Virus record (IMG/VR): IMGVR_UViG_3300045988_121526
Length of the DNA stretch: 32,536 nt
Origin: a virus
Direction: 5' to 3' (one strand)
A program made the position numbers and the translations under genes. The notes beneath the pieces were generated by a model that was not told where the DNA came from, searched no databases, and was given only the letters and a program-made list of their open reading frames with translations. Below, piece by piece: positions 2,592 to 32,536 of this stretch (positions are counted from its first letter, which is position 1; the number at the start of each line of letters is the position of its first letter).

Positions 2592-3869
2592 TTGAGCAGA
2601 TCACAACCGTTCGTGCGCTCGCTCTTCGATGCGGTGTTCCACCGTCCGCAGATGCAAGCTGTAAACGGCTACTTCAGCACGTTCACGGCCTACGCGCCGA
2701 GCTTCACGACATGGCAGGGCGGGCTTTACGAAGCCGAGCTGACGCGCAGCATCATTGAGAGCGGCGCAGACCACGCAAGCAAGCTGAAACCGGAGGTTTC
2801 CGGCTCTGCTCAGCCTGTCGCCGCGCGCGCTCTCAGGCAGCAGCCTAACCCGTGGATGACAACCCCGCAGTTTATCAAGCGCATCTGGACGATTCTTCAG
2901 GTGAACGACACGGCGCTCATAATCCCGATAGACGCGGGAGACGGCACCACTATAACGGGCTACTACCCCGTTCTTCCGAGCCAGTGCGAAGCATACGACG
3001 TTGACGGCGAGCTCTGGCTAATGCTCACGTTCCCGACCGGCGACAGCGTGCTTGTCGAGTGGTCGCGCGTGGGCGTTATGACGCGCCACCAGTACCAAAG
3101 CGATTTGTTCGGCGACGGCACGAACGTTCTTCAGCCGACGTTGGAGCTGATGCACGCGCAGAACGAAGCCGAGCAGTCGGCTATCAATCAGGGCGCGGCG
3201 GTGCGGTTCATCGGCAAGCTAAGCCAGAACCGCAACGAGGGCGACCAAGAGAAGGCGCGCAAGGCGTTCAACTCTCAGCTTTCCGCAGACAACGCGGGCG
3301 GCATCGCCGTATATGACAAGCTGTTTTCAGACGTGCAGCAGATAACGCCGAACAGTTACACGGTCGATGCGGCGCAGATGGAGCGAATCGAGAAGAGCGC
3401 TTACCGCTTCTTCGGCTCCAATGAGGATATCGTCACGAACTGCGCGGACGAAGACACCTTCAACAGCTACTACGAAGGACGCATCGAGCCGTTCGCTGTT
3501 CAGCTCGGATTCGTTATCACATCCATGACGTACACGGCGAACGAGATAGCGCACGGAAACTCAATCATGTTCAGCGCGAACCGTCTAGAGTTCGCCAGCA
3601 ATACGACGAAGCTTAACGTCTCGGTCGCGCTCTTCGACCGTGGTATCTGGAACGGCAATCAGGTTGCCGATGTTTTCCAATCGCCGCACTACGACGGCGG
3701 CGAGCGCCACGTCATACGCGGCGAGTACATCGACCTTGCGCTCATCAGCGAGCACACGGCGGAACAGGCGGCGCAAGCCGCGCAGACGAACGCGAACATA
3801 GCCGCTATCGACGCGAGCAGCGGCGTTGGAACCAGCAAGGAGGTAGACGATGCCGGCGAAACCGAGTGA
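2592..3869 (+). CDS. Portal protein (HK97-family-like)
   Basis: TTG start 6 nt after aggagg. About 425 aa, placed between terL and the prohead protease. The upstream part of ORF 2526.. overlaps the terL end and is Arg/Cys-rich. Confidence 0.88.
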   Translation: MSRSQPFVRSLFDAVFHRPQMQAVNGYFSTFTAYAPSFTTWQGGLYEAELTRSIIESGADHASKLKPEVSGSAQPVAARALRQQPNPWMTTPQFIKRIWTILQVNDTALIIPIDAGDGTTITGYYPVLPSQCEAYDVDGELWLMLTFPTGDSVLVEWSRVGVMTRHQYQSDLFGDGTNVLQPTLELMHAQNEAEQSAINQGAAVRFIGKLSQNRNEGDQEKARKAFNSQLSADNAGGIAVYDKLFSDVQQITPNSYTVDAAQMERIEKSAYRFFGSNEDIVTNCADEDTFNSYYEGRIEPFAVQLGFVITSMTYTANEIAHGNSIMFSANRLEFASNTTKLNVSVALFDRGIWNGNQVADVFQSPHYDGGERHVIRGEYIDLALISEHTAEQAAQAAQTNANIAAIDASSGVGTSKEVDDAGETE

Positions 3870-4485
3870 ACGGCAATACCGTTCCCTTGCCGTGCCGCTC
3901 AACGTGCGGACGGCTGACGGAAGCGCGAACAAGCGCCTTGACACCGATTACTACGTCGAGGGCTACGCATCGACATTCAACGACCCATACGTGCTTTTCA
4001 CCGACTGGGACGGCAACGAGTATCGCGAGATCATCGACCCCGGCGCTTTCGACGGCGCGGACATGAGCGACGTTATCATGCAGTACGACCATGCGGGCAA
4101 GGTTCTCGCGCGCATGAGCAACAACACGCTCATTGTCGAGCCTGACAAGCACGGGCTTTTCATCGCGGCAGACCTTAGCGGCTCTCAGGCCGCGCGCGAC
4201 CTTTACGAAGAGATTACTAACGGCCTTATCACGCGCATGTCGTGGGCTTTCAGCGTGGGCGCGGACGAATACGACCGGGACACGCACACCACGACCATTA
4301 CGCGCGTCAAAAAGGTTTTCGACGTGTCGGCGGTGAGCCTTCCGGCTGACCCAAATACGGAGATTTCAGCAAGAAACCTGCTCAACGGAGTGATTGAGCA
4401 GTCGCGCAAGGAGCTTGCGCGCCGTAAGAGTGCCCTTGCAATCGCGAGGGCGACGCTGGCAATCGCCAAGAGCAGAAAGGTTTAG
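3850..4485 (+). CDS. Prohead maturation protease (HK97 / S78-like)
   Basis: The pattern ...YVEGYASTFNDPY...IIDPGAFDG...MQYDHAGKVLAR...WAFSV... is typical of HK97 prohead proteases. aaggagg RBS. Confidence 0.88.
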   Translation: MPAKPSERQYRSLAVPLNVRTADGSANKRLDTDYYVEGYASTFNDPYVLFTDWDGNEYREIIDPGAFDGADMSDVIMQYDHAGKVLARMSNNTLIVEPDKHGLFIAADLSGSQAARDLYEEITNGLITRMSWAFSVGADEYDRDTHTTTITRVKKVFDVSAVSLPADPNTEISARNLLNGVIEQSRKELARRKSALAIARATLAIAKSRKV

Positions 4486-4489
4486 AACA

Positions 4490-5773
4490 ATGGACGAACT
4501 GACTATGGATGACCTGCTTAACGAGCTTCAGGGGCTTGTTGACAAGTACAAGGCCGATGACGGCACCGACACCGAGCCGAGCGAGCAGGACGCGGAGCGC
4601 ATGAGCGCGCTTACCGCCGAGATCGAGAAGCGAAACGCCGCCGCCGCGCAGCGCCGCGACAGCCACGCCGCGACCGTCGCCGCCGCGCGAGCCGCTATCG
4701 AGAACGGCAGCGCCCGCCGTGTCGATGCCGTGCCGCTGGGCACTTCCGCGAGCGCTCGCGGCGCTCTGCCGCAGGTGCGCGACACGACCGACTACAACGC
4801 CGCCGCCCGCCGCGCTTGGGTGAAGGACATTGCCCGCCGGAGCGGCGTGCAGCTCATCGAGGGTACCGATTTCACGCAGGTTGAGCGCGACGCTTACAAC
4901 GCGCTTGTCGAGCGCCGCACCGCGTTCACGCACCTGACCAGCAACACCGATGCGGTTATCCCCGTCGAGCTTCAGACGCAGATTTTCAGCCTGATTGACA
5001 ACACGGCTGTTCTCTACGGCGACATCCACAAGGACAACTTCCCGCACCAGTTCGAGCTTATCCGCCATAAGAGCATCAAGGCTGGCGACGCGGCGCAGAC
5101 CACCGAGGGCGCAGCTCCCACCGATGAGGAGCAGAACGAGTTCGACACCATCACCCTTACGGGCGAGGAGATCAAGAAGACCGTGAAGATGAGCCGAAAG
5201 ATGGCGGTTCAGTCTATCAACGGCTTTGAGCAGTACATCGTCAACGAGACTGGCGCGCGCCTTGCCGTTGCCGCCAACGCGCGCGTCCACGCCAAGACTG
5301 TTGACACCACGCTTGGCATGGATTCCGGCAACAAGATTAACTGCGCTACCGCTGGCACGCTTGTCAAGGCCGATATCACCAAGCTTCTCGGTCTGCTCTA
5401 CACCTACGGCAACCCCGCGCCGAAGGGCTGCATCATCTACGCCAACGGCAACACCATCTGGAACCATATCGCTATGGTCGAGGATGCCAACGGGCGCTCT
5501 TACTTCGTGGACGAGAAGACCGAAGACCCCGCTGTTGAGGGGCATATCTTCGGCAAGCTCGTCAAGCGCGACGATTCGATGGCGGACGGTATCATCAAGG
5601 CGGGCTATCCCGACCTGTTCCGTGGGAACATCTTCGACGGCGTGGACGTTACGCCGTATGTCGAGCCGGGTACGCAGAAGCGCTGCTTTGACGGATACCT
5701 GCTCTTCGACGGCGGGCTTGCCGTGCCTAAGTCTTTCGGCCAGCTCACCATCGGCACCGCCGTTAAGGCTTAG
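4490..5773 (+). CDS. Major capsid protein (HK97 fold family)
   Basis: ATG 4490 follows the protease stop. An N-terminal coiled delta-like segment is followed by a region of about 300 aa. The position is canonical. Confidence 0.88.
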   Translation: MDELTMDDLLNELQGLVDKYKADDGTDTEPSEQDAERMSALTAEIEKRNAAAAQRRDSHAATVAAARAAIENGSARRVDAVPLGTSASARGALPQVRDTTDYNAAARRAWVKDIARRSGVQLIEGTDFTQVERDAYNALVERRTAFTHLTSNTDAVIPVELQTQIFSLIDNTAVLYGDIHKDNFPHQFELIRHKSIKAGDAAQTTEGAAPTDEEQNEFDTITLTGEEIKKTVKMSRKMAVQSINGFEQYIVNETGARLAVAANARVHAKTVDTTLGMDSGNKINCATAGTLVKADITKLLGLLYTYGNPAPKGCIIYANGNTIWNHIAMVEDANGRSYFVDEKTEDPAVEGHIFGKLVKRDDSMADGIIKAGYPDLFRGNIFDGVDVTPYVEPGTQKRCFDGYLLFDGGLAVPKSFGQLTIGTAVKA

Positions 5774-11771: not shown

Positions 11772-14323
11772 TTAGACGCATAGGCTTCACCCGCTTCAGC
11801 CGTTGGGGCGACAATCTTGGGCGGCTCACGGTGAGCGCCGCGACGCATACAGACGCGCTGGACGGAACCGACGAGCTGAACATCACGTGCGCCGAAGACC
11901 TCGTGAAGGGCGACCGCGTAGTCTGGATTGACCTTCGGGGCGTTTGCCACGAACACATCGTTGACACCATCGACCGAGTGCACGACGATGACGGCGCGCC
12001 TGAAACGCAAGCCGTCTGCATCAACTCGGTGAACGAGACGTGGGATGACTGGCTGGACGATAAGCGGCCTTCCGGCAGCGTGTCGGTAGCCCTCGCGTCA
12101 ATCCTCGCAGACACGCGCTGGGAGGTCGGCACGTGCGATCAGGGCGGCAGCGCTTCGCGCACCTTCTACCACGAGAGCGTGCGCGAGGGCTTGGCGGGAA
12201 TCATCGAGACGTGGGGCGGCGAGCTTGAAACGCTCATCGTCCACGACGGCGCGAGGATCGTTAGCCGCCGCGTGGGCGTGCGCGCCAAGCGAGGCAACCA
12301 GAGCAGCGCCAAGCGGTTCACGTGGACTAAAGACCTCGTTTCCGTCAAGCGCTCCGTTGCGAGCGACAACCCGAAAACGCGCGTCTACGGATACGGCAAG
12401 GGTGTTGAGACGGAGAGCGGCGGCTACGGTCGCCGCCTTACCTTCGGCGATATCAACGACGGCAAAGACTACGTGGAGGATTCCGACGCTACAACCGTTT
12501 GGGGGCACCCTGACGGCGAGGGCGGCATTCTTCCCGCCGTCGCGTCATACATCAACGAGCAGTGCGAGGACGCGGCGCAGCTCTTGCAGGAAACGAAAGA
12601 CTACCTAGAGCAGGTTAAGGAGCCGAAAGTAACCTATACAGCTTCGGTTATCGACCTATACGCCTTCGGTCGCTCGTGGGAGGGCGTGGGTGTTGGCGAT
12701 GATGTTGCAATCATCGACAAGGGCTTTTCTGCCGAGGGCGTGCGCCTTCATGGCCGCGTGTCTCAGATTGAGCGCGACTTGCTCACCGGCGACGCGACCG
12801 TGACGTTCGGCATGCTTACGGACACGATGGCCGACATGTGGCAGAGCGTCAACGCCGCCCTGAAGAGCAACAGCCAGCAAAACGCGCTATACGACGCTGC
12901 GGCTGGCACGTCGGTATCGTGGCTCATTCAGCTTCAGCAAGCGCTCAACGCTCAGTTCAACGCGGTTGGCACCTACCATGTCGAGACGTTCGAGCTTGGC
13001 GAGATTTGGAGCAACGTACCGCTGAACCCCGAAACGGGTTTGCCGGTCAAGGCGACCGCCGACATGTGGGCTATCAACGTCAACGGGCGCGGCCAGCGGT
13101 TGGCCGCTGGCCTTACGTCAGACGGTCAATGGGATTGGCGAACGTTCTTCACGGGCGGCATGGTGACTGCCGATGTTATCAACGCTGGCACCATGAAGGC
13201 AGACCGCGTGCGCGCCGGTCTGCTCACCGACGAGAAGGGAAACAACTACTGGGATTTGACCAGCGGCGAGTTCTCGCTTTCTGCTGGCGCTAAGCTCGGC
13301 GACACGAGCGTTGAAGACCTTTTTAACGGAATTAACGAACTCGATAAGACGATGGACGGCATAGCCGAAGACGGCATCATAACCGAAGCCGAGCACGCCG
13401 CCGTATCTAAGATCATGCAGACCGTTGAGAAGGAAAGCGCCGACGTTGAAAGCGAGTACACCGCTCTTATCAACAGCGATGACCTGCAAGCTCAGTTCAA
13501 AGCGGTTCTTCAAGCGCAGTATGAAGCGGTTTACAGCGTCAATGGCACGCACGCTAGGCTTGAGCTGATGATTCAGAATGTGCTTGCAACGACAACAGCC
13601 GAAGAGCTGGCGGACGCAATGCAACTCTACGAAATCGCTTACAGCAACTATTCGGACACGCTGAAAACGTACTACTCCGCCGCGCGGCAAGCCCAAAGCA
13701 TGATTGAGCAGAAACAAGCGCAAGACAAGGTGGACGATCTGGACGATTCCCTCACGCAACGTGAGGTTTTCAACCGGCTGACGAACAACGGCGCTACGCA
13801 GGGAATCTACCTAAGCGGCGGTCTGCTCTATATCAACGCTACCTACATCGAAACCGGCACGATCAGCGACCGTCTGGGGCGTAACACGTGGAACCTGAGC
13901 ACTGGAAAGCTCACGACTAACTACATGACCGCGAACAACATAGATGCAAGCGGAACGTTCGAATGCGGTAGCGTTTCAAACCTGCTCAGGATTGCGAGCG
14001 GTGCGGTATACGGATTCGAGAACAGCGAGCAAATCGGAAAGATTGACTTCTCCGCACACTCCTACAACATTGACGATCCGTCAATCAAGTATCGCGGCAT
14101 TCAGATTACGGCAGAAGGCACGGTGCGCATCAGTTCGCCGCAGATTTCGACTGCCGTATCAAGCAATCAGAGTACGACAGCGACCATCTGCACAACGAAA
14201 GATTCGAGTGTCACGTACATTAGCGAGATTAGAGATGACGGAGACGGAACAATTTCTTGGTCTTGGAAAACGCGATCCATCAACTTCAAGAACGGGTTAT
14301 GCACATACTGCGGACTGGACTAG
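11762..14323 (+). CDS. Tail-associated protein (Tal / prophage tail endopeptidase-like N-terminus) with a long coiled-coil and fibre-like C-terminal extension
   Basis: ATG 11762 overlaps the Dit stop. 853 aa, in third position after the tape measure. No sheath gene is present, so the tail is non-contractile. Confidence 0.72.
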   Translation: MALIRRIGFTRFSRWGDNLGRLTVSAATHTDALDGTDELNITCAEDLVKGDRVVWIDLRGVCHEHIVDTIDRVHDDDGAPETQAVCINSVNETWDDWLDDKRPSGSVSVALASILADTRWEVGTCDQGGSASRTFYHESVREGLAGIIETWGGELETLIVHDGARIVSRRVGVRAKRGNQSSAKRFTWTKDLVSVKRSVASDNPKTRVYGYGKGVETESGGYGRRLTFGDINDGKDYVEDSDATTVWGHPDGEGGILPAVASYINEQCEDAAQLLQETKDYLEQVKEPKVTYTASVIDLYAFGRSWEGVGVGDDVAIIDKGFSAEGVRLHGRVSQIERDLLTGDATVTFGMLTDTMADMWQSVNAALKSNSQQNALYDAAAGTSVSWLIQLQQALNAQFNAVGTYHVETFELGEIWSNVPLNPETGLPVKATADMWAINVNGRGQRLAAGLTSDGQWDWRTFFTGGMVTADVINAGTMKADRVRAGLLTDEKGNNYWDLTSGEFSLSAGAKLGDTSVEDLFNGINELDKTMDGIAEDGIITEAEHAAVSKIMQTVEKESADVESEYTALINSDDLQAQFKAVLQAQYEAVYSVNGTHARLELMIQNVLATTTAEELADAMQLYEIAYSNYSDTLKTYYSAARQAQSMIEQKQAQDKVDDLDDSLTQREVFNRLTNNGATQGIYLSGGLLYINATYIETGTISDRLGRNTWNLSTGKLTTNYMTANNIDASGTFECGSVSNLLRIASGAVYGFENSEQIGKIDFSAHSYNIDDPSIKYRGIQITAEGTVRISSPQISTAVSSNQSTTATICTTKDSSVTYISEIRDDGDGTISWSWKTRSINFKNGLCTYCGLD

Positions 14324-14334
14324 GGAGGTATTTC

Positions 14335-14733
14335 ATGGCGACTATTTATTACGTTGCTCACGACCCGCTAAGCAACTCGGAAGCAGTCATTACTGAGTAC
14401 GACAGCGAGCTTCTTAAGAAAGCCGCTGAGGGCGGAATTGTATTCATCGCCGTTGACGATGATGGAAGCCGTTCCATCGTTCCCGTTGACGACGTAAAGG
14501 AGCCTGAGAACCGCGAAGGCTCGTTCACCATCGTTCAGCCCATATACGTCGATGACAGGGTTAGAGCTGTCGTTGACGTATTCGACGCTCTGGCTGCGAG
14601 CGTGCCAGCCGTCGCCGCGAGCGCGGACGTGCAGCCCGTGTCTAGCAAGGCGCGATCTGCTATGAGCTTCGCCGAAGCGCTCGCCGCCCTCCGCGCGCTC
14701 GCTTACGGAACCGGCGAGGAAGGCGGCGAGTGA
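14335..14733 (+). CDS. Hypothetical tail-module protein
   Basis: ATG follows agggagg. 132 aa. No family recognised. Confidence 0.6.
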   Translation: MATIYYVAHDPLSNSEAVITEYDSELLKKAAEGGIVFIAVDDDGSRSIVPVDDVKEPENREGSFTIVQPIYVDDRVRAVVDVFDALAASVPAVAASADVQPVSSKARSAMSFAEALAALRALAYGTGEEGGE

Positions 14734-15734
14734 TGAGCAACACACGGACGCTTGAACTCGATATCTCGAAGGAGGGAACGGGAACCTGCGTCAAGGTGGG
14801 TCAGGGCGACGATGGCGGAACCACCATCAAGGCGCTTATCTACGACAACGGAGCCGAGTTCTCGCTTTCCGGCGCGACGGTGTGGCTCGTGGTGCTTCTA
14901 CCGAACAAGAGAAACTACTATCGCGGCCAGTGCACCGTGAGCGGAAACGCCGCAACCATCACGGTTGACGAATCGAAGCTTTGCAGCGTGTCCGGCTACA
15001 CCGACGAAGCCTACTTCACGATCACGAAGAGCGGTGCAACCTACTCAACGGAGCGCTTCGCTATCGAAATCCTGCGAAGCGCTCTTGACGGCCAGCAGCC
15101 CGCGCAGAACTGGGACGATGCCGTTCAAGACCTCATCGACCGTGGAGAGACGGCGGTAAAGAACGCCAACAGCGCAGCGAGCGCGGCGAACACAGCCGCT
15201 GGTGAGGCAAACACGGCTGCGAGCACAGCGAACAGCGCCGCGACGGCCGCGAACAACGCGGCAGATGCCGCAAACACCGCCGCATCCGCCGCCAACACGG
15301 CGGAGCAGAACGCCGACGCTGCGACCACGGCTGCGAACAACGCGGCATCAGCCGCCAACACCGCCAAGCAGAACGCCGACGAGGCAACATCCAACGCCAA
15401 CGCCGCCGCGAACGCGGCGAACACAGCCGCTTCAAGCGCCAACGCTGCCGCTGCTGCGGCAAATGGCGCGGCAGAGGATGCAACGGCGGCTGCTCAGAAC
15501 GCGCTAAACATCGCAAACTCAATCGCGGCAATCGAACCGCCGTCAGACAGCGAGGTTCAAGAGCTGCGCGAAGAGAACGCGACGCTCGCGACGGCGCTTG
15601 TAGAGCTACAGGACGGCTACATAGTTCTTGGCGAAACGGCGTACATGCCAACGAACAGGCGAAGCGCGCTGTCTGGCGAAACGCTCACCGTCGCCCAGGC
15701 GACCATGAGCGGCGAGACGGCAACGCTCAACTAA
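14733..15734 (+). CDS. BppU-like (baseplate upper protein N-domain-like) fibre protein with an Ala/Asn heptad stalk
   Basis: The N-terminal ~135 aa (LELDISKEG...IKALIYDNG..F.LSGATV...ITVDES...) resembles phage BppU N-domains. About 17 heptads of ANxAAxx follow. TGATG overlap with the previous gene. Confidence 0.65.
   Translation: MSNTRTLELDISKEGTGTCVKVGQGDDGGTTIKALIYDNGAEFSLSGATVWLVVLLPNKRNYYRGQCTVSGNAATITVDESKLCSVSGYTDEAYFTITKSGATYSTERFAIEILRSALDGQQPAQNWDDAVQDLIDRGETAVKNANSAASAANTAAGEANTAASTANSAATAANNAADAANTAASAANTAEQNADAATTAANNAASAANTAKQNADEATSNANAAANAANTAASSANAAAAAANGAAEDATAAAQNALNIANSIAAIEPPSDSEVQELREENATLATALVELQDGYIVLGETAYMPTNRRSALSGETLTVAQATMSGETATLN
15165..15536 (+). repeat. About 17 tandem 21-nt (heptad) repeats encoding ANSAASA/ANTAASA/ANNAADA...
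   Basis: Reading the translation in blocks of 7 keeps Ala at positions 1, 4 and 5 and Asn at position 2 through nearly the whole stretch. Confidence 0.85.
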
Positions 15735-15749
15735 GGAAGGAGAAAAGCA

Positions 15750-16652
15750 ATGGCCGACTTGTCGAAGTTCTCTATCGGCGGAACCGCCTACAATCTGAAG
15801 GATTCTTCTGCGCGCAACACGGCGAACGCCGTAACGACTGCTGAGGAATACGACCGACAGCACAACACAAACTCTTACGCTGGGCGCTCGCTCGCTTCGG
15901 TCTTCGCAAACGAGATCGGGAGCAGCGACGTTTACACATGGCTTCGGAACCGCGTTCGAAGCGCCAACTTCGCCGGTCTTCGCATCGGCGATTACATCGA
16001 CGTTCCCATCACGGCGGGCGCTAACGTGCCGTCGCAGACGGTGCGCTACCGCATCGGCGCTATCGACCACTATTACCAGTGCGGCGACACAGCGAAGGGG
16101 CACCATATCGTCATGGTGCCGCTCGCGCCCGTGAGCGTCACCGGCGACAAGGCATCAAACACCAGCTACCTTCAGTGGCGCGAGACGAACGACAACAACG
16201 GCACCGCCGAGGAAAAGCACCCTTACTTGGTTTCGAAGCTGCACGACTGGGAAATCAACGACTTCCTGCCAGCTCTGCCGACCGCGCTTCAGAACGCGAT
16301 CATGGCGCAGCGCGTGCTTCTCGAAGAGCGCTATTCGTCTTCGGAGAAGCTTACGGAAGCGAGCGGTTGGAGCTGGGCGGACTTGGGCAAGATTTGGTCG
16401 CCTTCAGAGATGGAGGTTTACGGGTGCCCGGTCTGGGGCAGCAAGGGCTACTCTGTCGGCTTCGATAGCCAGTTCCCCATCTTCACCGACACCGCAAGCC
16501 GCATCGCGGGCGGTCGCGTCGATTGGTGGCTGCGCTCCGTCATGGGCGGGTCTTCGTCCAACGCGTGCTATGTCAGCAGCAACGGCACTGCCAGCAACAA
16601 TGCCCCGACGCACGACTGGACACGCCCCCTGCCGTGCTTCCTCCTAGGCTGA
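15750..16652 (+). CDS. DGR target protein: putative receptor-binding tail-fibre tip with a C-terminal variable region (CLec-type ...WWLRS... signature)
   Basis: ATG follows ggaaggag. The last ~43 codons coincide with VR. The C-terminus DWWLRSVMGGSSSNACYVSSNGTASNNAPTHDWTRPLPCF matches the TR-encoded NWWLRSVMGGSSSNACNVNSNGNANNNAPTNDWIRPLP. Confidence 0.85.
   Translation: MADLSKFSIGGTAYNLKDSSARNTANAVTTAEEYDRQHNTNSYAGRSLASVFANEIGSSDVYTWLRNRVRSANFAGLRIGDYIDVPITAGANVPSQTVRYRIGAIDHYYQCGDTAKGHHIVMVPLAPVSVTGDKASNTSYLQWRETNDNNGTAEEKHPYLVSKLHDWEINDFLPALPTALQNAIMAQRVLLEERYSSSEKLTEASGWSWADLGKIWSPSEMEVYGCPVWGSKGYSVGFDSQFPIFTDTASRIAGGRVDWWLRSVMGGSSSNACYVSSNGTASNNAPTHDWTRPLPCFLLG
16514..16641 (+). repeat. 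DGR variable repeat (VR)
   Basis: 128 bp aligns without gaps to 17213..17340 (119/128 identical). Eight of the 9 mismatches are TR-A to VR-non-A. Confidence 0.9.
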
Positions 16653-16663
16653 TAAAATCAGCC
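16647..16663 (+). promoter_or_regulatory. Hairpin ggctga-taaaa-tcagcc just 3' of VR (includes the target stop codon); candidate DGR target-recognition hairpin
   Basis: 6-bp perfect stem with a 5-nt loop, 6 nt after the end of VR/TR homology. Confidence 0.4.
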
Positions 16664-16680
16664 GTACTAGGTACTGGTCT

Positions 16681-16740
16681 GGCGCATGCCTTGCGCATGC
16701 GCCTTTGCTTCCCCGCGCGAAGCGCGGGAGAAGCAATTTT
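16681..16740 (+). terminator. Two consecutive GC-rich hairpins; the second is followed by a T-run (terminator of the tail/target operon)
   Basis: Hairpin 1: ggcgcatgc-cttgc-gcatgcgcc (16681..16703) followed by ttt. Hairpin 2: gcttccccgcgc-gaa-gcgcgggagaagc (16707..16734, one bulge) followed by aatttt. Confidence 0.6.
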
Positions 16741-16772
16741 CAAAAATCACGGAGGGGGGGGGATGTTGAAAA

Positions 16773-17183
16773 TTGAGCGGCGTATATGTGCGGAACCGCA
16801 ACCTAAGCTCGTTCGAGTATTTCAACACTGCTGTTTCGATTCGAAACGACGTGACGCGTCTTGTGGCTTCGTCGGCGGTGCCGAAGTCTTATCGCTTCAT
16901 CCTCGCCGTCCCCATGGCGGAGACGGCGCGAAGCTTGGTGTTCAATCTGGTTAAGGCTGATGCCTTCTACCCGAACACGGCTCGCAACGTCGAAGAGCGC
17001 AAGCATTACATGACGCTTGCGATAGCGGACTTGCAGCAGCTATACCAAGACCTGCAATGCCTTATGGCTATGAACCTGCCGGTGAAGGTCGCGCGGTTCG
17101 AAGCGATATCAGAGAGCATAGAGAGCGACATAAAGCTGATAAAGGGCGCTCGCGCGGGCGTGAAGCTCATCGGGAAGGGGTAA
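16773..17183 (+). CDS. avd: DGR accessory variability determinant (Avd-like)
   Basis: 136-aa basic, apparently all-helical ORF between VR and TR, matching bAvd in size and position. The start is uncertain (TTG 16773 or GTG 16788), downstream of the ggag+G9 tract. Confidence 0.72.
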   Translation: MSGVYVRNRNLSSFEYFNTAVSIRNDVTRLVASSAVPKSYRFILAVPMAETARSLVFNLVKADAFYPNTARNVEERKHYMTLAIADLQQLYQDLQCLMAMNLPVKVARFEAISESIESDIKLIKGARAGVKLIGKG

Positions 17184-17184
17184 A

Positions 17185-18330
17185 ATGGTCGCGCGTTGTC
17201 CCTTGGAAATCATCGCGTCAATTGGTGGCTGCGCTCCGTCATGGGCGGGTCTTCGTCCAACGCGTGCAATGTCAACAGCAACGGCAATGCCAACAACAAT
17301 GCCCCGACGAACGACTGGATACGCCCCCTGCCGTGATTCCCAAGCCTTGCCAGACCGTGCGGCCATAAGCGCCGCGCGCCGTGCATTTGAGGAAGGAAGG
17401 GGCGACCGTCGGGCGCTAGCCCGTAAATATGCACCCCGCGACGGTTGCCGTTCGCTGCTTGCATGGCGCGGCTTCATCGAGTTTGACTTGTTCGAGCGCG
17501 GCAAGCTTCGTCACATATGCTCTGTCCACTTCTCGGAGCGCGTGATACAGAAGTCTTTGAGCCGTCACGCCCTCGCTCCCGCGATCTGGCCTACACTTAC
17601 CGAGGGATGCGCCGCGAACGTCAAAGGGCGCGGCACAGACTACGCGATTCGTCGGATGAAGCGCCAGCTTGTCGAACACCACCGAAAGCACGGAACGGAA
17701 GGCTACATCTTGCAGGTCGATTTCGCGGACTACTTCGCAAACATCGACCACGACGCTTGCAAGCGCCTTATCGACCGCGCCATTGACGATGAGCGGGTTA
17801 AGCGCGTCATGGCAGACCAGATAGACGCTCACGGAGCGCGCGGCTTGGGTCTTGGCAGCGAGCCTAACCAGATTCTAGCGGTCGCCCTGCCGTCTCCGGT
17901 TGACCATCTGATGCTGTCCCTTCCGGGCATCTTGGCAAGCGGGCGCTACATGGACGATAGCTATTGCATCGCTCTTGACAAGCAGACGCTTTGGGACGCG
18001 CTTTCGCGCATCGAATCGCTCTGCGACGATCTGGGAATCATCATCAACCGCAAGAAGACGCGCGTTGTGAAGCTCACGCGCGGATTCACGTTCCTTAAGA
18101 AGAGGTTTTCGTATGGCGAGGGCGGAAAAGTTGTTGTTCGCCCGTGCCGTTCCTCCGTGACGCGACAGCGGCGCAAGCTGAAGAAGCAAGCCGCGCTGGT
18201 CGCCAAAGGGGTTATGACCGTCGAGCAGGTCAACCAATCCTACCAGTCGTGGCGCGGCAGCATGAAGCGCCTGAACGCGCACGAGACGGTAAAACGCATG
18301 GACGCGCTCTATAAGGAGCTTTTCGGCTAA
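17185..18330 (+). CDS. DGR reverse transcriptase (start uncertain: ATG 17185 reads through TR; TTG 17347 lies 7 nt after TR)
   Basis: RT motifs seen: GKLRHICSVHFSERVIQKSL, NVKGRGTDYA, ILQVDFADYFANIDH, LGLGSEPNQ (DGR motif-4 position) and GRYMDDS (YxDD). It is adjacent to TR and avd. Confidence 0.9.
   Translation: MVARCPLEIIASIGGCAPSWAGLRPTRAMSTATAMPTTMPRRTTGYAPCRDSQALPDRAAISAARRAFEEGRGDRRALARKYAPRDGCRSLLAWRGFIEFDLFERGKLRHICSVHFSERVIQKSLSRHALAPAIWPTLTEGCAANVKGRGTDYAIRRMKRQLVEHHRKHGTEGYILQVDFADYFANIDHDACKRLIDRAIDDERVKRVMADQIDAHGARGLGLGSEPNQILAVALPSPVDHLMLSLPGILASGRYMDDSYCIALDKQTLWDALSRIESLCDDLGIIINRKKTRVVKLTRGFTFLKKRFSYGEGGKVVVRPCRSSVTRQRRKLKKQAALVAKGVMTVEQVNQSYQSWRGSMKRLNAHETVKRMDALYKELFG
17213..17340 (+). 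repeat. DGR template repeat (TR)
   Basis: Cognate of VR. In the VR frame it carries 10 AAY codons and ends in TGA. It lies 30 nt after the avd stop. Confidence 0.9.
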
Positions 18331-18354
18331 AAGGAAACACGAAATCAGGCACCC

Positions 18355-18384
18355 AAGCCCTCGCACTAGCGGGGGCTTTTTTGT
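18355..18384 (+). terminator. Rho-independent terminator after the RT
   Basis: aagccctcgc-acta-gcgggggctt followed by tttttg. Confidence 0.75.
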
Positions 18385-18402
18385 TACCGAGAGAAAGGGG
18401 AA

Positions 18403-18852
18403 ATGATGGCACTTACCGAAGACGAAGAGGGCATGGTTCGCGCGATCATCGCAATCTTCAAGGCTCAAGCCCCGTCCCTATCGTCGGACGTTGCGGCCAA
18501 GTGCTCCGTGCTTTTCGCGGAGTGGGACGGGGACGGCCACGCCTACGCAGAGGGCGAGCGCGTGAGTTACGAGGGAGTTCTTTACGTATGCCTTCAGGCG
18601 CACACGTCGCAGCCCGATTGGTCGCCCACGGCAGCTCCGAGCCTTTGGGCGAAGGTCGTTGAGTATGCAAGTGGCGGTGATGACCCGTCGAGCATTCCCG
18701 AGTGGGTGCCGCCGAGCAACGAGAACCCTTACCCGAAGGGCGCTGTCGTGCGCCATAACGGCAAGGTCTGGGAATCCCTCGTTGCTAACAACGTCTGGGA
18801 GCCGGGGGCTGTCGGAACCGAAACCGTCTGGCGAGAGGTGACGGAGGGCTGA
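18403..18852 (+). CDS. Carbohydrate-binding protein with two CBM5/12-like repeats
   Basis: Repeat 1: Y.EGERVSYEGVLYVCLQAHTSQPDWSPTAAPSLW. Repeat 2: YPKGAVVRHNGKVWESLVANNVWEPG...W. Both are chitin-binding-type aromatic motifs. Confidence 0.7.
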   Translation: MMALTEDEEGMVRAIIAIFKAQAPSLSSDVAAKCSVLFAEWDGDGHAYAEGERVSYEGVLYVCLQAHTSQPDWSPTAAPSLWAKVVEYASGGDDPSSIPEWVPPSNENPYPKGAVVRHNGKVWESLVANNVWEPGAVGTETVWREVTEG

Positions 18853-18853
18853 C

Positions 18854-19300
18854 GTGGCGGAAAGCGTTTTAGACCATGCAGCGGCCTTCGGTGCCGAATG
18901 GTTCTTCGCGTTCCTCGTTGCTATCGGCTTCGGAATCCTCGCAAAGCAGTTGCTTAACGAGTACCAGCGCAACAACGAGCGCAAGGCGGAGCTTGAAGAG
19001 CGAAACGCAGCGCGACAGGCAGAGCTAGAGCTGAAGCGCGAAGAGCGCAAGCGCGACGAACTCAACGAGCGCGCGCAGCGCGACCGCGAGCGCTCGGAAA
19101 TGGAAGGCCGTATCGCTGCGCAGATGGAGCGAAGCAACAACATTTCGGAAGGGCTGCAAGCCGCTATGGAATCTCTCAGGGCATCCACGGCAGCGCTGCA
19201 CGACGAAATCAGGGAATCGCGCGAGCACTCGCACGACATGACAAACAAGGTCGATCACATCTACGACCGCGTAGACCTCATCTATGAAAAGGAGAGCTGA
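18854..19300 (+). CDS. Membrane-anchored coiled-coil protein (lysis-cassette associated, function unknown)
   Basis: GTG follows ggaggg. One N-terminal TM helix (WFFAFLVAIGFGILAKQLL) precedes a highly charged E/R/K coiled coil. Confidence 0.65.
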   Translation: MAESVLDHAAAFGAEWFFAFLVAIGFGILAKQLLNEYQRNNERKAELEERNAARQAELELKREERKRDELNERAQRDRERSEMEGRIAAQMERSNNISEGLQAAMESLRASTAALHDEIRESREHSHDMTNKVDHIYDRVDLIYEKES

Positions 19301-21410: not shown

Positions 21411-22979
21411 CTATTTTTGACACGTGCCAACGACAACAAACCAGTTTTTCGATACTCTAACGATGCAAGTATCAAGCTGGATAGCCGCGCGGTTGGCGGT
21501 ACTGGTGGAGTTCGCCGTTTTTCTCATAAGCTCCACCATGCAAGAATTAGTCGAACTGTGCCCTTCGGGGCATGGTTCGGCTTTTTTCTTTTTCGGGCTG
21601 AAATCGTTTCCGTAGTGGTCGAACGCGAAGTAAACGTTAAGCGTCTTCCCGTCAATTTCCGCGAATCGAACAAATGAATTTAAGATCACTTCGGGCGTTA
21701 GGTTTTCCGCCGCATCATCGAGCCACAGCATGAGTTCGTCAGCGCCGATGTTAAACGCTTCTTCTCGCTCGGCTATGCGCAGCTCCGCTTCAAGCTCGCT
21801 TTTGCGCTGCTTCAGCTCTTCGGTTCGCTCTCTTCCGCCGGGTGGCGCTATCCCGTCTTCTATGGCTTGCCAGATTCGTTCAAAGGTGCGGTCAATCCGC
21901 TTCAGCTCTTTCTTTATCGCATAGCTTCTTGATTGTTCCTTCGGCTGCTCTTTCTGAAACTCAACCATCCCGCTTGCTATGCGTCGCCTAACGTCTTCGC
22001 GCGCAACGGCTTGCAAGGTCATGTCGCAAACAACGTCTTCTATGAGATCACGCCGCACGGTTCGGCGGCACTTGCGGCACTTGTAGTAGTGATACGTCGC
22101 GCCCGTGCACGATGTGCCGCTTGTGCCCGCCATTGGCGCGCCGCACTTCGAACAGTAGAGCTTGCCGGACAATGGAAACTCTAGGGTTGAGTTGACCCTG
22201 CGACGCGGCCTATGCCGGTCGCCAAGTATGTTGCTAATCATGTCTTGCTCGGCTTGCGTCCATATTGCGGGCATCCCGTCTTCGACTTCGTGCCCAGCGT
22301 ATTTGTAGACACCTGCATTCTGAACGCGCTTCAATAGCTTTGTGACGGTATCCTGATTGAACTTTGCTCCGCGCTTGCTTCGCTCGGCGCTCACGGCGCG
22401 CACGATATCGGCGACAGAGCTACCGGCAAACAGCATGTTCTTCATCTTGCGAAGCACAGACGCTTCGCGCTCATTGATTACGTAGCGGCCTTCTACGATA
22501 TCCCACCCGTACAGAGTGCGCCCGTTCGCCATGCACCGCTGCGCGTTCTTCTGGATTCCGTCTCTGATGCGCTCACTATCAAGCGCGCTTTCATACTCGG
22601 CGAGAACTTCGAGCATGCCGAGCTGCAACACGCCGCTTGACCCGCTGGAAATGTCCTCGCCAGCGTATAGGATTTCTACGCCAGCCTTGCGAAGCATGAT
22701 GCGCGCAAGCGACATTTCATCACGGTTGCGCATGATTCGCGTAACTTTGTAGATCACCACATAATCAAATAGCCCGTGTCGGGCATCGCTCATCATCCGC
22801 TGGAACTCGGCACGGTCGATGTTTCGCCCCGTCTGTGCATAGTCGCAGTATTCATGCACGACCTGCAAGCCCTCACGCTCGCAGTACGCGCGCGAGTTCT
22901 CAACTTGTATCTCTATGCTTTCCGAACGCTGATTGTGCGAGCTAAAGCGCGCGTATATAGCGGCTCGGTTCTTCACCAT
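21411..22979 (-). CDS. Large serine recombinase (integrase)
   Basis: AAIYARFSS..Q (catalytic Ser region), a resolvase-like N-domain, a recombinase domain, a Cys-rich zinc ribbon (CSKCG...YYKCRKC) and a coiled coil. ATG 22979 follows aggggtg. Confidence 0.9.
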   Translation of the reverse strand: MVKNRAAIYARFSSHNQRSESIEIQVENSRAYCEREGLQVVHEYCDYAQTGRNIDRAEFQRMMSDARHGLFDYVVIYKVTRIMRNRDEMSLARIMLRKAGVEILYAGEDISSGSSGVLQLGMLEVLAEYESALDSERIRDGIQKNAQRCMANGRTLYGWDIVEGRYVINEREASVLRKMKNMLFAGSSVADIVRAVSAERSKRGAKFNQDTVTKLLKRVQNAGVYKYAGHEVEDGMPAIWTQAEQDMISNILGDRHRPRRRVNSTLEFPLSGKLYCSKCGAPMAGTSGTSCTGATYHYYKCRKCRRTVRRDLIEDVVCDMTLQAVAREDVRRRIASGMVEFQKEQPKEQSRSYAIKKELKRIDRTFERIWQAIEDGIAPPGGRERTEELKQRKSELEAELRIAEREEAFNIGADELMLWLDDAAENLTPEVILNSFVRFAEIDGKTLNVYFAFDHYGNDFSPKKKKAEPCPEGHSSTNSCMVELMRKTANSTSTANRAAIQLDTCIVRVSKNWFVVVGTCQK

Positions 22980-23075
22980 GCTAAAATCACCCCTAGAGCA
23001 AGCGCGGTAAAGCGCTCTGCTTCTTGACCAGCCCCGCGCGCGTTCCGCCAAGTTCCCGTGCGGGGTTTTCTTTTT

Positions 23076-28084: not shown

Positions 28085-28306
28085 ATGGGCGGCAAGTACG
28101 AGGTTCGCGGCGCGATGAGCGGACTTTGCCCGTTCTGGGACGGTCAATTTACCAACTCGCTTGCTCATGCCCTGCTGCTGCTCATCCGATTTTCTCTGAA
28201 GTACCGAATCGTTCAGTTCAACATCAGGAAAGAGCCGTTGGATTGCGCGGACTGCCACGACGATAACTGCCCTTCGCGGATTCGTGAAAACTGCGAGTGG
28301 TCATGA
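28085..28306 (+). CDS. Hypothetical protein (73 aa, Cys-containing C-terminus)
   Basis: ATG 28085 lies 2 nt after the previous stop. The gene overlaps the recombinase start. Confidence 0.45.
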   Translation: MGGKYEVRGAMSGLCPFWDGQFTNSLAHALLLLIRFSLKYRIVQFNIRKEPLDCADCHDDNCPSRIRENCEWS

Positions 28307-29481
28307 TGGGCGTTAAGGTCAAGCGCGGCGCAGATGGCGTGTTCGAATGCCGTTTGTACCTAGGTCGCAGCGTGGACGGCAAGGCTATTCGGCCTTACAA
28401 GCGGTTTCCTAACGCGGCTACCGAAGAGGAAGCGCAAGCCCTCGCCGAGACGTGGGCGGCTTACGTGACGGCTGACGGAACGGTTAGAAGCGCCCGCTTG
28501 ACCGATTTGCTCGAAGACTACGTGCAACTGCGCGAGCGCAACGGCGCAAGCCCGAACAGCATTAAGAGCTATCGGCTGTTCTGCCGCTACGTCGCACGTT
28601 ACCTGAAGACCGCAAACGCACGCGATCTTGGCGTTATGGACTTCAACCGCTTTGAGCAACGCTTGCTCATGGCGAAGGACGAAGGCGGGCAAGGTCTTTG
28701 CCGCAATAGCGTTATCAACGTCCACAACTTCTTGCGCGGAGCTTATAACCACTTCGTAGACGCTGGTATTTGCGACGCTAACCCGCTGGTGTACGTCGCC
28801 AAACCGTCGCCGGAACGGCACGAAGCTTCAGCGCTCACCGAATGGGATTTCGAGGGCTTCAACGAGAAGCTAGAGGGTGCGCTTAGCAAGGAGATCAAGA
28901 CGAAGGCCGATTACCGCGCCGCCGTCTACGCCTTCGCTTCGTGGCTGTCGCTCGTTACCGGCATGCGCGTTGGCGAGGTGTGCGCGGTGCAGCGCATCGA
29001 CGTTAAGCGCGTCTTGTCTTACGTCCACGTCGGCGGCAACGTCATTGAGGGCAAGGGCAAGAAGCCCTATCGCCGAAACGTCACCAAAGGCCGCAAGTGC
29101 CGCAACGTCGCGCTTACGCAAGACGATATCGCGGTCATTGATGCCTTCACGAAGCTTCAGAGCGCCGTTCTGGGACGTTTGGGCGCAGATTGCCCACTGG
29201 TGACGCTAGACGGCTCATATATGCGCCCAACGACGATTTCACGGGCTTTCAGCCGCATACGCGACGCGTGCGGACTACCGCGAGAGATCACGTTTCACAG
29301 CTTGCGTCACACGCACGCTTCATGGCTCATCGCCAACGGCTGCGACCTGAAGACGCTATCTGAGCGCATGGGGCACGCGGACGAAGCAACGACGCTTCGA
29401 ATCTACGGCCACCTGATGCCCGGACGCGACGCGGCGGCGGCTCAGCTCTTCAGCGAAGCGAAGCGCCGCGCGGCGGGTTAG
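28303..29481 (+). CDS. Tyrosine recombinase (phage-integrase family)
   Basis: C-terminal catalytic region ...GMRVGEV...HSLRHTHASWLIANGCDLKTLSERMGHADEATTLRIYGHL (R..H.LRH..Y pattern) with an N-terminal SAM-like core-binding region. Confidence 0.88.
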   Translation: MMGVKVKRGADGVFECRLYLGRSVDGKAIRPYKRFPNAATEEEAQALAETWAAYVTADGTVRSARLTDLLEDYVQLRERNGASPNSIKSYRLFCRYVARYLKTANARDLGVMDFNRFEQRLLMAKDEGGQGLCRNSVINVHNFLRGAYNHFVDAGICDANPLVYVAKPSPERHEASALTEWDFEGFNEKLEGALSKEIKTKADYRAAVYAFASWLSLVTGMRVGEVCAVQRIDVKRVLSYVHVGGNVIEGKGKKPYRRNVTKGRKCRNVALTQDDIAVIDAFTKLQSAVLGRLGADCPLVTLDGSYMRPTTISRAFSRIRDACGLPREITFHSLRHTHASWLIANGCDLKTLSERMGHADEATTLRIYGHLMPGRDAAAAQLFSEAKRRAAG

Positions 29482-32448: not shown

Positions 32449-32536
32449 ATGGCTAAGGACTTCTCGCGCGCCTTCTACTCATCCGCCGACTGGGAACGCG
32501 CCAGAGACGCGGCGCTTACGCGCGACGCTCACCTAT
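32449..32536 (+). CDS. HNH endonuclease, N-terminal part (continues at nt 56 of the window through the 55-bp overlap)
   Basis: ATG 32449 follows aggggg. MAKDFSRAFYSSADWERARDAALTRDAHL... is in frame with 1..285. The joined gene is 318 nt. Confidence 0.85.
   Translation, partial: MAKDFSRAFYSSADWERARDAALTRDAHL

Follow-up and report, generated by a model that had tools for sequence, protein, structure and literature searches.

A probable diversity-generating retroelement with a 331-nt gap in its spacer and reverse transcriptase gene in a Collinsella-type siphovirus contig

Introduction

The window analysed here is a viral contig of 32,536 nt (IMG/VR record IMGVR_UViG_3300045988_121526) in which two similar stretches of 128 nt lie on either side of a small open reading frame (ORF), at the end of the phage tail module. 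The question that this locus raises is whether the two stretches are the variable repeat (VR) and the template repeat (TR) of a diversity-generating retroelement (DGR) and, if so, whether the element can still diversify its target in this copy. An earlier note, made from the sequence alone, had described the pair as a DGR with adenine mutagenesis on AAY codons and had assumed an ordinary active element.

The two stretches are almost certainly the VR/TR pair of a DGR. The cassette has the order target gene (DUF6273), Avd-like protein, TR, spacer and reverse transcriptase (RT), which is the canonical DGR layout. Our overall reading, to which we assign a probability of about 0.8, is that the window carries a DGR of a temperate Collinsella-type siphovirus, that its RT and spacer are truncated here, and that it probably does not diversify on its own if the deletion is real.

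Adenine-specific differences between the two repeats

A repeat search followed by base-by-base alignment identified a single direct repeat of 128 nt, 16514-16641 and 17213-17340, at a spacing of 699 nt, with 94 % identity and no gaps, exactly as had been claimed. The two sequences diverge completely past 16641/17340. When the window was searched for further TR copies, extra VRs or remote targets, none were found, and this pair stands alone.

The repeats differ at eight sites (Table 1), seven of which are TR adenines, the remaining one being a T>C change. All eight sites had been listed correctly in the earlier note, but its totals of nine mismatches, eight of them at A, were wrong. Six differences fall on position 1 or 2 of TR AAY codons and are exact as claimed (aat>gat, aat>tat, aac>agc, aat>act, aac>agc and aac>cac); in the frame of ORF 15750-16652 they change N>D, N>Y, N>S, N>T, N>S and N>H, respectively. 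The part of the VR open to mutagenesis contains all six of these substitutions (16521, 16569, 16576, 16588, 16594 and 16611) together with the non-A change at 16621.

Adenine accounts for 27 of the 128 nt of the TR, and at least seven of eight mismatches at A gives a binomial P of 1.2e-4 (Fisher 6.4e-5). Not every A mismatch reflects mutagenesis, however. That interpretation stands for the six AAY sites and fails for 17336 A/16637 C, which is a fixed difference in 37 of 37 related pairs (see below). When this site was left out, 6 of 7 mismatches were at A (P=4.2e-4).

The design of the TR also agrees with a DGR. Its 10 in-frame AAY codons and the translation given for it were both correct on recount, and enumeration of the A-site variants yielded no possible stop codon, as expected of the stop-free design proposed earlier. 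The figure of 15^10 = 5.8e11 variants is right as arithmetic but is only a lower bound, since the TR has 26 transferable A sites; their theoretical repertoire is 4.5e15 DNA variants and 5.5e14 protein variants. In the VR frame the TR is ended by a TGA at 17334-17336 and is therefore a non-coding copy.

Transfer from template to variable repeat across the lineage

IMG/VR was scanned with the RT, which gave 56 loci, mostly from human-gut samples. TR/VR counts were pooled over the 40 loci with full-length pairs, and site rates were calculated from 37 distinct pairs with repeat position 124 left out. One more distant relative, L045, was kept out of the pooled counts: its pair (3632-3759 and 4421-4548) has 23 differences, 13 of them at non-A bases, and looks like a decaying or mispaired DGR.

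Of 472 TR/VR differences in the 40 pairs, 450 (~95 %) were at TR adenines. Among the 37 distinct pairs, TR and VR differ at 41 % of A sites versus 0.48 % of non-A sites (Fisher 1e-271), and the A changes consist of 177 A>G, 104 A>T and 96 A>C. All TR-A columns between repeat positions 8 and 109 vary, and the non-A columns almost never do. A spread of mismatches over all four TR bases had been named earlier as the result that would speak against a DGR, and the rates above are the opposite of such a spread.

Silent TR polymorphisms at repeat positions 22, 25, 34, 37, 91, 115 and others are matched exactly (0 mismatches) in the cognate VR, and thereby show repeated TR-to-VR transfer. The exact TR of the window was found in 10 other loci. 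Seven of these have full-length VRs, all unlike that of the window; L058 carries both the TR and the VR of the window; and only the TR was recovered from L008 and L020. One identical TR is thus paired with eight distinct VRs in nine loci (the window, the seven and L058), and the comparison of VR alleles across related contigs, also suggested earlier as a check, gave differing VRs over the same TR. Information flow in one direction, from a constant TR to a VR that varies, is seen for the lineage, not for this individual contig.

Among phages with the same TR, the VR was expected to vary far more than the remainder of the target gene. This was not so, as 20 % of VR sites and 19 % of the sites in the rest of the gene were variable. 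The specificity for A was judged by base specificity and by two protein clusters at 90 % identity instead of by VR versus gene-body variability, because the 5' part of the target gene is itself mosaic. In the two clusters, the protein columns with at least four alleles were 258, 271, 274, 276-278, 280, 282-284, 288 and 291, which are AAY/ATA codons, with column 39 as the lone outlier. The core claim of a DGR TR/VR pair with adenine mutagenesis on AAY codons is accordingly borne out by the window, the 40 related loci and the protein clusters alike.

The mosaic was seen in a set of same-TR phages (the window, L001, L012, L018, L021, L024 and L057). The 5' three-quarters of the target gene, 15750-16513, has 19 % variable sites in this set, and avd, TR and spacer (16773-17471) are nearly invariant (0-2 % variable). 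From these sequences the DGR cassette and the body of the target gene seem to have different histories, possibly via recombination in the tail gene.

The T>C change at 17320/16621 lies within a TR codon ATA, with the T flanked by two adenines, and 16621 is two bases before the first base of the GC-rich block at 16623-16636, with one base between. This T (repeat position 108) is altered in three of the eight distinct VRs over the window's TR, being replaced by C in the window and by G in both L021 and L057, and is unaltered in all 20 distinct pairs with G at TR position 107. The position may be a context-dependent site of non-A misincorporation near the start of the cDNA, or a selected position, the numbers being too small for significance. 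Non-A changes were reported in 23 % of DGRs (PMC5758913), and the T>C is no argument against a DGR.

Two further observations concern individual VR alleles. In L018, the VR (4332-4459) equals the TR (5029-5156) except at the fixed position 124 and is thus an all-Asn 'naive' VR, for which non-mutagenic homing, TR-to-VR gene conversion or repeat collapse in the assembly are possible explanations. The VR allele of the window, with a 100 % identical target protein (P0375), is present on about five contigs, at least one of them from a different assembly. Since one VR allele was kept on several contigs, an allele can persist unchanged and diversification is not continuous.

A plain duplication or gene-conversion tract with ordinary point mutations and no retroelement could be argued from the mere eight differences in the window, one of which is at a non-A base and one a fixed boundary difference. 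Such an origin does not explain why the differences are specific for A, with P ~1e-4 in the window and ~1e-271 in the lineage, why a non-coding copy with a stop in the VR frame adjoins an RT and an Avd-like gene, why the TR is invariant and the VR variable, or why the codon design excludes stops. We give it practically no weight.

The 331-nt gap in the cassette

The assumption of an ordinary active DGR probably does not hold for this copy. The cassette is not intact in the window, where 331 nt are absent in comparison with all relatives. Window position 17471 corresponds to position 5287 of L001 and 17465 to its position 5612, and alignments with L005, L018, L028, L037, L057 and L058 gave the same gap. 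It takes the last 80 nt of the spacer, and also the RT start with the first ~83 codons.

In the relatives, the native spacer of 211 nt has a conserved structure of 55 pairs, 13 of which show compensatory changes; shuffled controls gave 7.2+-1.7 compensatory pairs (0 of 500 reached the observed number) and slid controls at most 6. This covariation is consistent with a functional spacer RNA comparable to the 140-nt Sp of BPP-1. Helices 10 and 11 fall wholly within the gap and helices 6, 7 and 9 lose their 3' strands, two of those affected (7 and 9) being covarying helices; what remains in the window is limited to the 5' strands of helices 6 and 7.

The RT remnant matches RVT_1 (8.5e-9) and PHROG 1423, reverse transcriptase (1.7e-52), and carries the motifs LGSEPNQ (17851-17871) and YMDD (17947-17958). 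Its best PDB match is 8ub7_A from chain residue 64 on (E 3.5e-9), and the native RT of L001 matches the same chain from residue 10 (E 2.7e-12). We take 8ub7_A to be the RT of BPP-1 (bRT), from its length of 328 aa and bioRxiv 10.1101/2023.10.23.563531. The palm motif IGSLTSQ of bRT aligns to LGSEPNQ, and GLGLGSEPNQ is present in 116 of 120 homologues. The lost N-terminus aligns to residues 10-63 of 8ub7_A; it is conserved down to 63 % identity, with R14, L40, G50, W53, K54, Y60 and G78 invariant.

As 331 equals 1 modulo 3, the deletion joins the RT remnant in frame to an upstream reading frame, which gives ORF 17185-18330 (381 aa). It was considered whether the ATG at 17185 might be the genuine RT N-terminus, with the TR lying within the RT gene. 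This was rejected, because in the relatives the 17185 frame stops after ~125 codons and the RT has its own conserved ATG in another frame, 211 nt past the TR, giving 369-377 aa. The best 120 RT homologues cover 67-80 % (nearly all 75 %) of the 381-aa ORF, one of 100 % identity included, and the N-terminal 96 aa of the window's product are absent from all of them. An exact look-up of the 381-aa product returned no record, which is weak evidence as gene callers may choose another start. Judged from these alignments, the 381-aa "RT ORF" is a chimera.

The gap was compared most closely with L058 (ENA ERZ27262279, k119_152332), a contig from another assembly which agrees with the window at all 6,658 nt compared (12250-17471 and 17465-18900, 0 mismatches). 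L058 has the 331 nt and an intact RT of 377 aa, its VR and TR are the same as those of the window, and it is one of the several contigs on which the window's exact target protein is on record. The 28-mer across the junction had no match in IMG/VR or JGI metagenome contigs. The gap is therefore private to this contig; either it arose by a microhomology deletion in the very recent past or it is artefactual. The chimeric N-terminus, likewise, is shared by no protein of a 5.8-billion collection.

The intact L058 and the unmatched junction and N-terminus would all fit an error of assembly or consensus, in which case the DGR of the real phage would be fully intact and ordinary in its activity. The position of the junction tells against such an error: it falls in the 7-nt repeat GGCGCGG, as is typical of replication-slippage deletions, and this repeat is far shorter than assembler k-mers (the 55-nt terminal overlap of the contig suggests k=55). 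The rest of the contig, when compared with L058, also bears no sign of misassembly. We therefore favour a real deletion, since a repeat of only 7 nt would not mislead a k-mer assembler; the deletion is probably real, and an artefact is less likely.

It was previously reported that the N-terminal extension of bRT forms the Avd interface and contacts the template via Lys29, that Avd is needed for catalysis, and that deletion of Sp 83-140 or 96-140 abolishes cis-primed cDNA synthesis (bioRxiv 10.1101/2023.10.23.563531). By analogy, a real deletion would very likely inactivate the cassette in cis, and the copy in the window should be unable to make cDNA. With these parts of the RT and the spacer missing, the mismatches record past activity, not necessarily present activity.

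The deletion might be real and the element might still work, through an active in-frame chimeric RT or through a co-resident prophage DGR in trans. The fusion is indeed in frame and retains the whole Pfam RVT_1 core with LGSEPNQ and YMDD, and a Shine-Dalgarno-like sequence, GGGAAGGGG, precedes its start ATG at 17185. Related prophages in which TR and Avd are the same or almost the same occur commonly in Collinsella genomes, and trans action of avd-TR-brt was documented in BPP-1 (PMC5758913). What was lost makes continued activity improbable, as the 83 missing residues are conserved and aligned to the very extension of bRT that contacts Avd and template, and the missing spacer part comprises the helices and strands named above, in a region of which deletion abolishes cDNA synthesis in BPP-1. 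A chimeric RT that still mutagenises adenines would make this a naturally minimised DGR, and would mean that this lineage can do without the N-terminal extension of its RT and the 3' domain of its spacer, or that the fused peptide replaces them; we regard this as very improbable. It is more likely that a DGR was caught being switched off by a microhomology deletion, zero substitutions away from an intact sibling, with one receptor-binding allele frozen.

Table 1 Features of the DGR locus in the window (positions in the window; the TR base is given first in each mismatch)
Feature	Position	Strand	Remarks
Target gene	15750..16652	+	300 aa, DUF6273; last gene of tail module; VR at residues ~255-297
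VR	16514..16641	+	3' end of target gene; 8 mismatches to TR
TR/VR mismatches	17220 A/16521 G; 17268 A/16569 T; 17275 A/16576 G; 17287 A/16588 C; 17293 A/16594 G; 17310 A/16611 C; 17320 T/16621 C; 17336 A/16637 C
Mutagenised part of VR	16521..16622	+	first to last transferable TR adenine
GC-rich block	16623..16636	+	CGCCCCCTGCCGTG; 14 nt, identical to TR 17322-17335; IMH-like start, 3' limit of mutagenesis
VR-specific 3' flank	16637..16652	+	CTTCCTCCTAGGCTGA; distal IMH-like part, to stop codon
Hairpin 1	16647..16663	+	GGCTGAT-AAA-ATCAGCC; DNA fold; spans stop codon
Conserved hairpin	16681..16703	+	stem GGCGCATGC/GCATGCGCC, loop CTTGC; 9-bp GC-rich stem, 39 nt past repeat end
Hairpin 3	16705..16736	+	followed by TTTT; terminator-like; not kept in all lineages
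Avd-like accessory protein	16773..17183	+	136 aa, TTG start; between target and TR; predicted four-helix bundle
Non-native 5' part of 381-aa ORF	17185..17471	+	ATG just past avd stop; reads through TR in a frame other than that of VR
TR	17213..17340	+	27 A, 26 transferable; 10 AAY codons in VR frame
Spacer (Sp) RNA remnant between TR and RT	17341..17471	+	first 131 of 211 nt
Deletion junction	17465..17471	+	one copy left of 7-nt direct repeat GGCGCGG; 331 nt of relatives absent
RT gene remnant	17472..18330	+	native residues ~86-369; RVT_1 core; no N-terminal extension, no native start codon

The 3' boundary of mutagenesis and the downstream hairpins

The GC-rich block shared by the two repeats corresponds to repeat positions 110-123. 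In the 37 pairs, there is zero TR/VR mismatch at positions 110-121 and 123 and a single one at 122; lineage-specific changes inside the block are matched between TR and VR. As the block is nearly free of TR/VR differences, transfer therefore stops inside it, and no A-to-N change was found 3' of it. Its role is assigned by analogy with the (GC)14 element of BPP-1 (PMC3240598, PMC5758913).

Directly after the block, repeat position 124 (17336/16637) reads A in every one of the 37 TRs and C in every one of the 37 VRs, at the third position of TGA in the TR and TGC in the VR. On sequence grounds, this is a fixed boundary difference of the type between the initiation of mutagenic homing element (IMH) and IMH*, as defined in PMC5758913, and not stochastic mutagenesis.

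Three hairpins follow (Table 1). The first is kept in most lineages and lost in the L039 group. Every one of the 42 loci compared has the hairpin of 16681..16703, at 33-44 nt from the end of the VR, with a perfect stem of 9-10 bp and the loop CTTGC. Three versions of the stem exist, with compensatory changes at up to 6 pairs, and the loop is invariant. The DNA fold of this region has z=-7.4, and the hairpin is the sole terminator-like match of the region. A GC-rich inverted repeat downstream of the VR is a feature of a minority of DGRs; BPP-1 requires one. Kept pairing of the stem and a constant loop fit the logic of the BPP-1 target hairpin, in which the structure of the stem and the sequence of the loop matter, and by this analogy the hairpin is a candidate DGR target-site hairpin or cruciform.

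The Avd-like protein

An AlphaFold model of the 136-aa protein consists of four helices (pLDDT 82). The best PDB folds for this model were 2gsc and 2rld, of the S23/PF05635 family, and 4dwl, the Avd of BPP-1, with template modelling (TM) scores of 0.74-0.90 and E-values of 3e-3 to 0.2. No profile match was obtained for the ORF in Pfam, PHROGs, NCBIfam or a phmmer search of PDB, or when a profile of 18 sequences was run against PDB. A homologue of 82 % identity is named Avd-like in nr.

When the surroundings of avd and TR were scanned for sigma-70 promoters, none were found. A run of 9 G at 16754-16762 lies in the Shine-Dalgarno-like region upstream of the avd start, and 6-11 G were seen among the relatives printed; this length variation could be homopolymer sequencing noise or a slippage-prone switch of avd expression.

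The target gene and genome context

The Pfam DUF6273 match of the target (1.2e-10, above the gathering score) covers residues 142-294 and has the VR at its C-terminal end. About 700 homologues were found in Collinsella, Enorma, Olsenella and Adlercreutzia. The gene comes after those for Dit, a Prophage_tail protein and a BppU_N protein, and a structure search in BFVD returned only other phage DUF6273 and tail-fibre models (best 1e-11). The target is probably a receptor-binding or tail-tip protein. A sequence search of the target against PDB gave nothing. Earlier papers describe DUF6273 as a domain targeted by DGRs, the VR lying at its C-terminal end (PMC10743442, PMC11792537, bioRxiv 10.1101/2024.10.15.618418), and a C-lectin-like fold was reported for it (PMC10743442).

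The window is a complete genome, circular or terminally redundant, with an exact repeat (1-55 = 32482-32536) and a unit of 32,481 bp; the overlap of 55 nt suggests an assembly with k=55. The gene order starts with large terminase, portal, S78 protease, capsid, a long ORF of tape-measure size, Dit, Prophage_tail protein, BppU_N baseplate protein and the ORF holding the VR. Further on are a CBM5/12 protein, holin, C39-like peptidase, GH25-LysM endolysin, a serine recombinase and a tyrosine integrase. Named protein homologues are from Collinsella, Enorma, Olsenella, Gordonibacter, Enteroscipio and Adlercreutzia. The phage is a temperate siphovirus of Coriobacteriaceae, of Collinsella type.

Some other features of the genome were recorded. 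Inside the BppU_N gene (14730-15734), a 21-nt periodic repeat at 15162-15472 encodes a 7-residue Ala/Asn-rich repeat (AANTAAS-like), which is probably a coiled-coil or fibre stalk. The small protein with two CBM5/12 modules (18403-18852, +) is encoded immediately after the RT, between it and the lysis genes, a position kept in L057 and L058. A large serine recombinase (21411-23051, -; Resolvase, Recombinase and Zn_ribbon_recom) is present alongside the tyrosine integrase (28297-29481, +; Phage_integrase). A tRNA-Ser with anticodon GCT, near the contig end (32343-32430, +), could be phage-borne or part of an attachment site, and an Rfam scan of the window returned this tRNA alone.

Proposed mechanism and meaning

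If the intact relatives work as BPP-1 does, an RNA spanning avd, TR and spacer would be bound by an RT-Avd complex, cDNA synthesis would begin in the GC-rich 3' end of the TR, and the RT would misincorporate opposite template adenines. The cDNA would then replace the VR, guided by the IMH-like 3' end of the VR and probably also by the downstream hairpin with the CTTGC loop. In this way up to 15 codons (26 adenines) could be rewritten at the C-terminal tip of the DUF6273 tail protein, never giving a stop, and the six AAY substitutions of the window would be the record of earlier mutagenic homing.

A number of observations weigh against parts of this reading. About 5 % of the TR/VR differences of the lineage are at non-A bases, the window's T>C among them. 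The Avd assignment is a matter of modelled fold and position, with weak Foldseek E-values, and the RT has the motif LGSEPNQ, not the IGSLTSQ of bRT. In the case of the target, the AlphaFold model has a pLDDT of 75 overall and below 50 over the VR, and a C-type-lectin fold was not recovered when the model was compared with PDB by Foldseek (E above 2). The loop of the conserved hairpin is 5 nt (CTTGC) versus the 4-nt GRNA of phage DGRs, and its distance of 33-44 nt is at or beyond the reported 4-34 bp (PMC3240598). The steps of priming and cDNA integration are carried over from BPP-1 by analogy. For the truncation, the unmatched junction 28-mer and the existence of an identical phage that keeps the region leave room for an artefact.

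Two lessons can be drawn for the reading of other DGRs. When TR and VR are simply compared base by base, mutagenesis is overestimated if the fixed IMH/IMH* difference at the boundary goes unnoticed, and a clean adenine signature is no proof of a working cassette, as RT and spacer are truncated here and kept in an otherwise identical phage. The CTTGC hairpin, the LGSEPNQ motif, the covarying 211-nt spacer and the pair of intact and deleted siblings offer material for testing the needs of DGRs in cis and in trans. The picture of how DGRs work is unchanged by these findings.

Comparison with known systems

The closest prototype is the DGR of BPP-1 (mtd-avd-TR-Sp-brt). Both have the order target, avd (here an Avd-like gene), TR, spacer and RT; both have the VR at the 3' end of a tail receptor-binding gene and A-to-N differences on AAY codons. 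In both, a 14-nt GC-rich block limits mutagenesis on the 3' side, with an imperfect IMH/IMH*-like stretch after it, the VR has a GC-rich hairpin downstream, and TR and RT are separated by a structured spacer RNA. Among solved structures, 8ub7, taken to be bRT, is nearest to the RT, and the model of the accessory protein superposes on Avd 4dwl.

The two systems differ in several respects. The DUF6273 target has no detectable sequence similarity to Mtd, the Avd-like protein is too divergent for a profile match, and LGSEPNQ replaces IGSLTSQ in the RT. The hairpin of BPP-1 has a 4-nt loop, GAAA, immediately after the IMH, in contrast to the 5-nt loop found here well downstream of the VR (33-44 nt), and the native spacer of this lineage has 211 nt compared with 140 nt. 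In addition, the window is without the RT N-terminal extension and the spacer 3' domain.

The accessory protein also resembles the four-helix bundles of PF05635, or 'S23 ribosomal protein' (2gsc and 2rld), with TM scores of 0.82-0.90 relative to the target and a root-mean-square deviation of 1.5-2.4 A. Unlike that family, the 136-aa protein has no sequence-profile match to it in Pfam or NCBIfam.

When the cassette was searched at the nucleotide level against 50,697 GenBank phage records, there was no match. DGRs that target DUF6273 were previously described in gut phages, namely the Faecalibacterium prophages Lelie, Roos and Pioen (PMC11792537), the nd4/nd12 'tentaclin' phages (PMC10743442) and Toutatisvirus (bioRxiv 10.1101/2024.10.15.618418). 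The present lineage shares with them the Pfam DUF6273 target, the VR at the C-terminus of the domain and the human-gut phage context, and its small single-domain target (about 230-300 aa) resembles nd4_tgt2 and nd12_tgt2. The C-lectin-like fold of DUF6273 in those papers was not recovered here by Foldseek against PDB. This phage has a single target and several of that group have two; its host belongs to Coriobacteriia (Actinomycetota), whereas theirs are Bacillota or Bacteroidota.

The DGR lineage of Collinsella/Coriobacteriaceae phages, with more than 50 related contigs, thus joins the gut-phage DGRs already known to diversify tail proteins with DUF6273. Its specific traits, which are the Coriobacteriia hosts, the very divergent Avd-like protein, the LGSEPNQ motif, the CTTGC-loop hairpin and the 211-nt spacer, are variations within a known kind.

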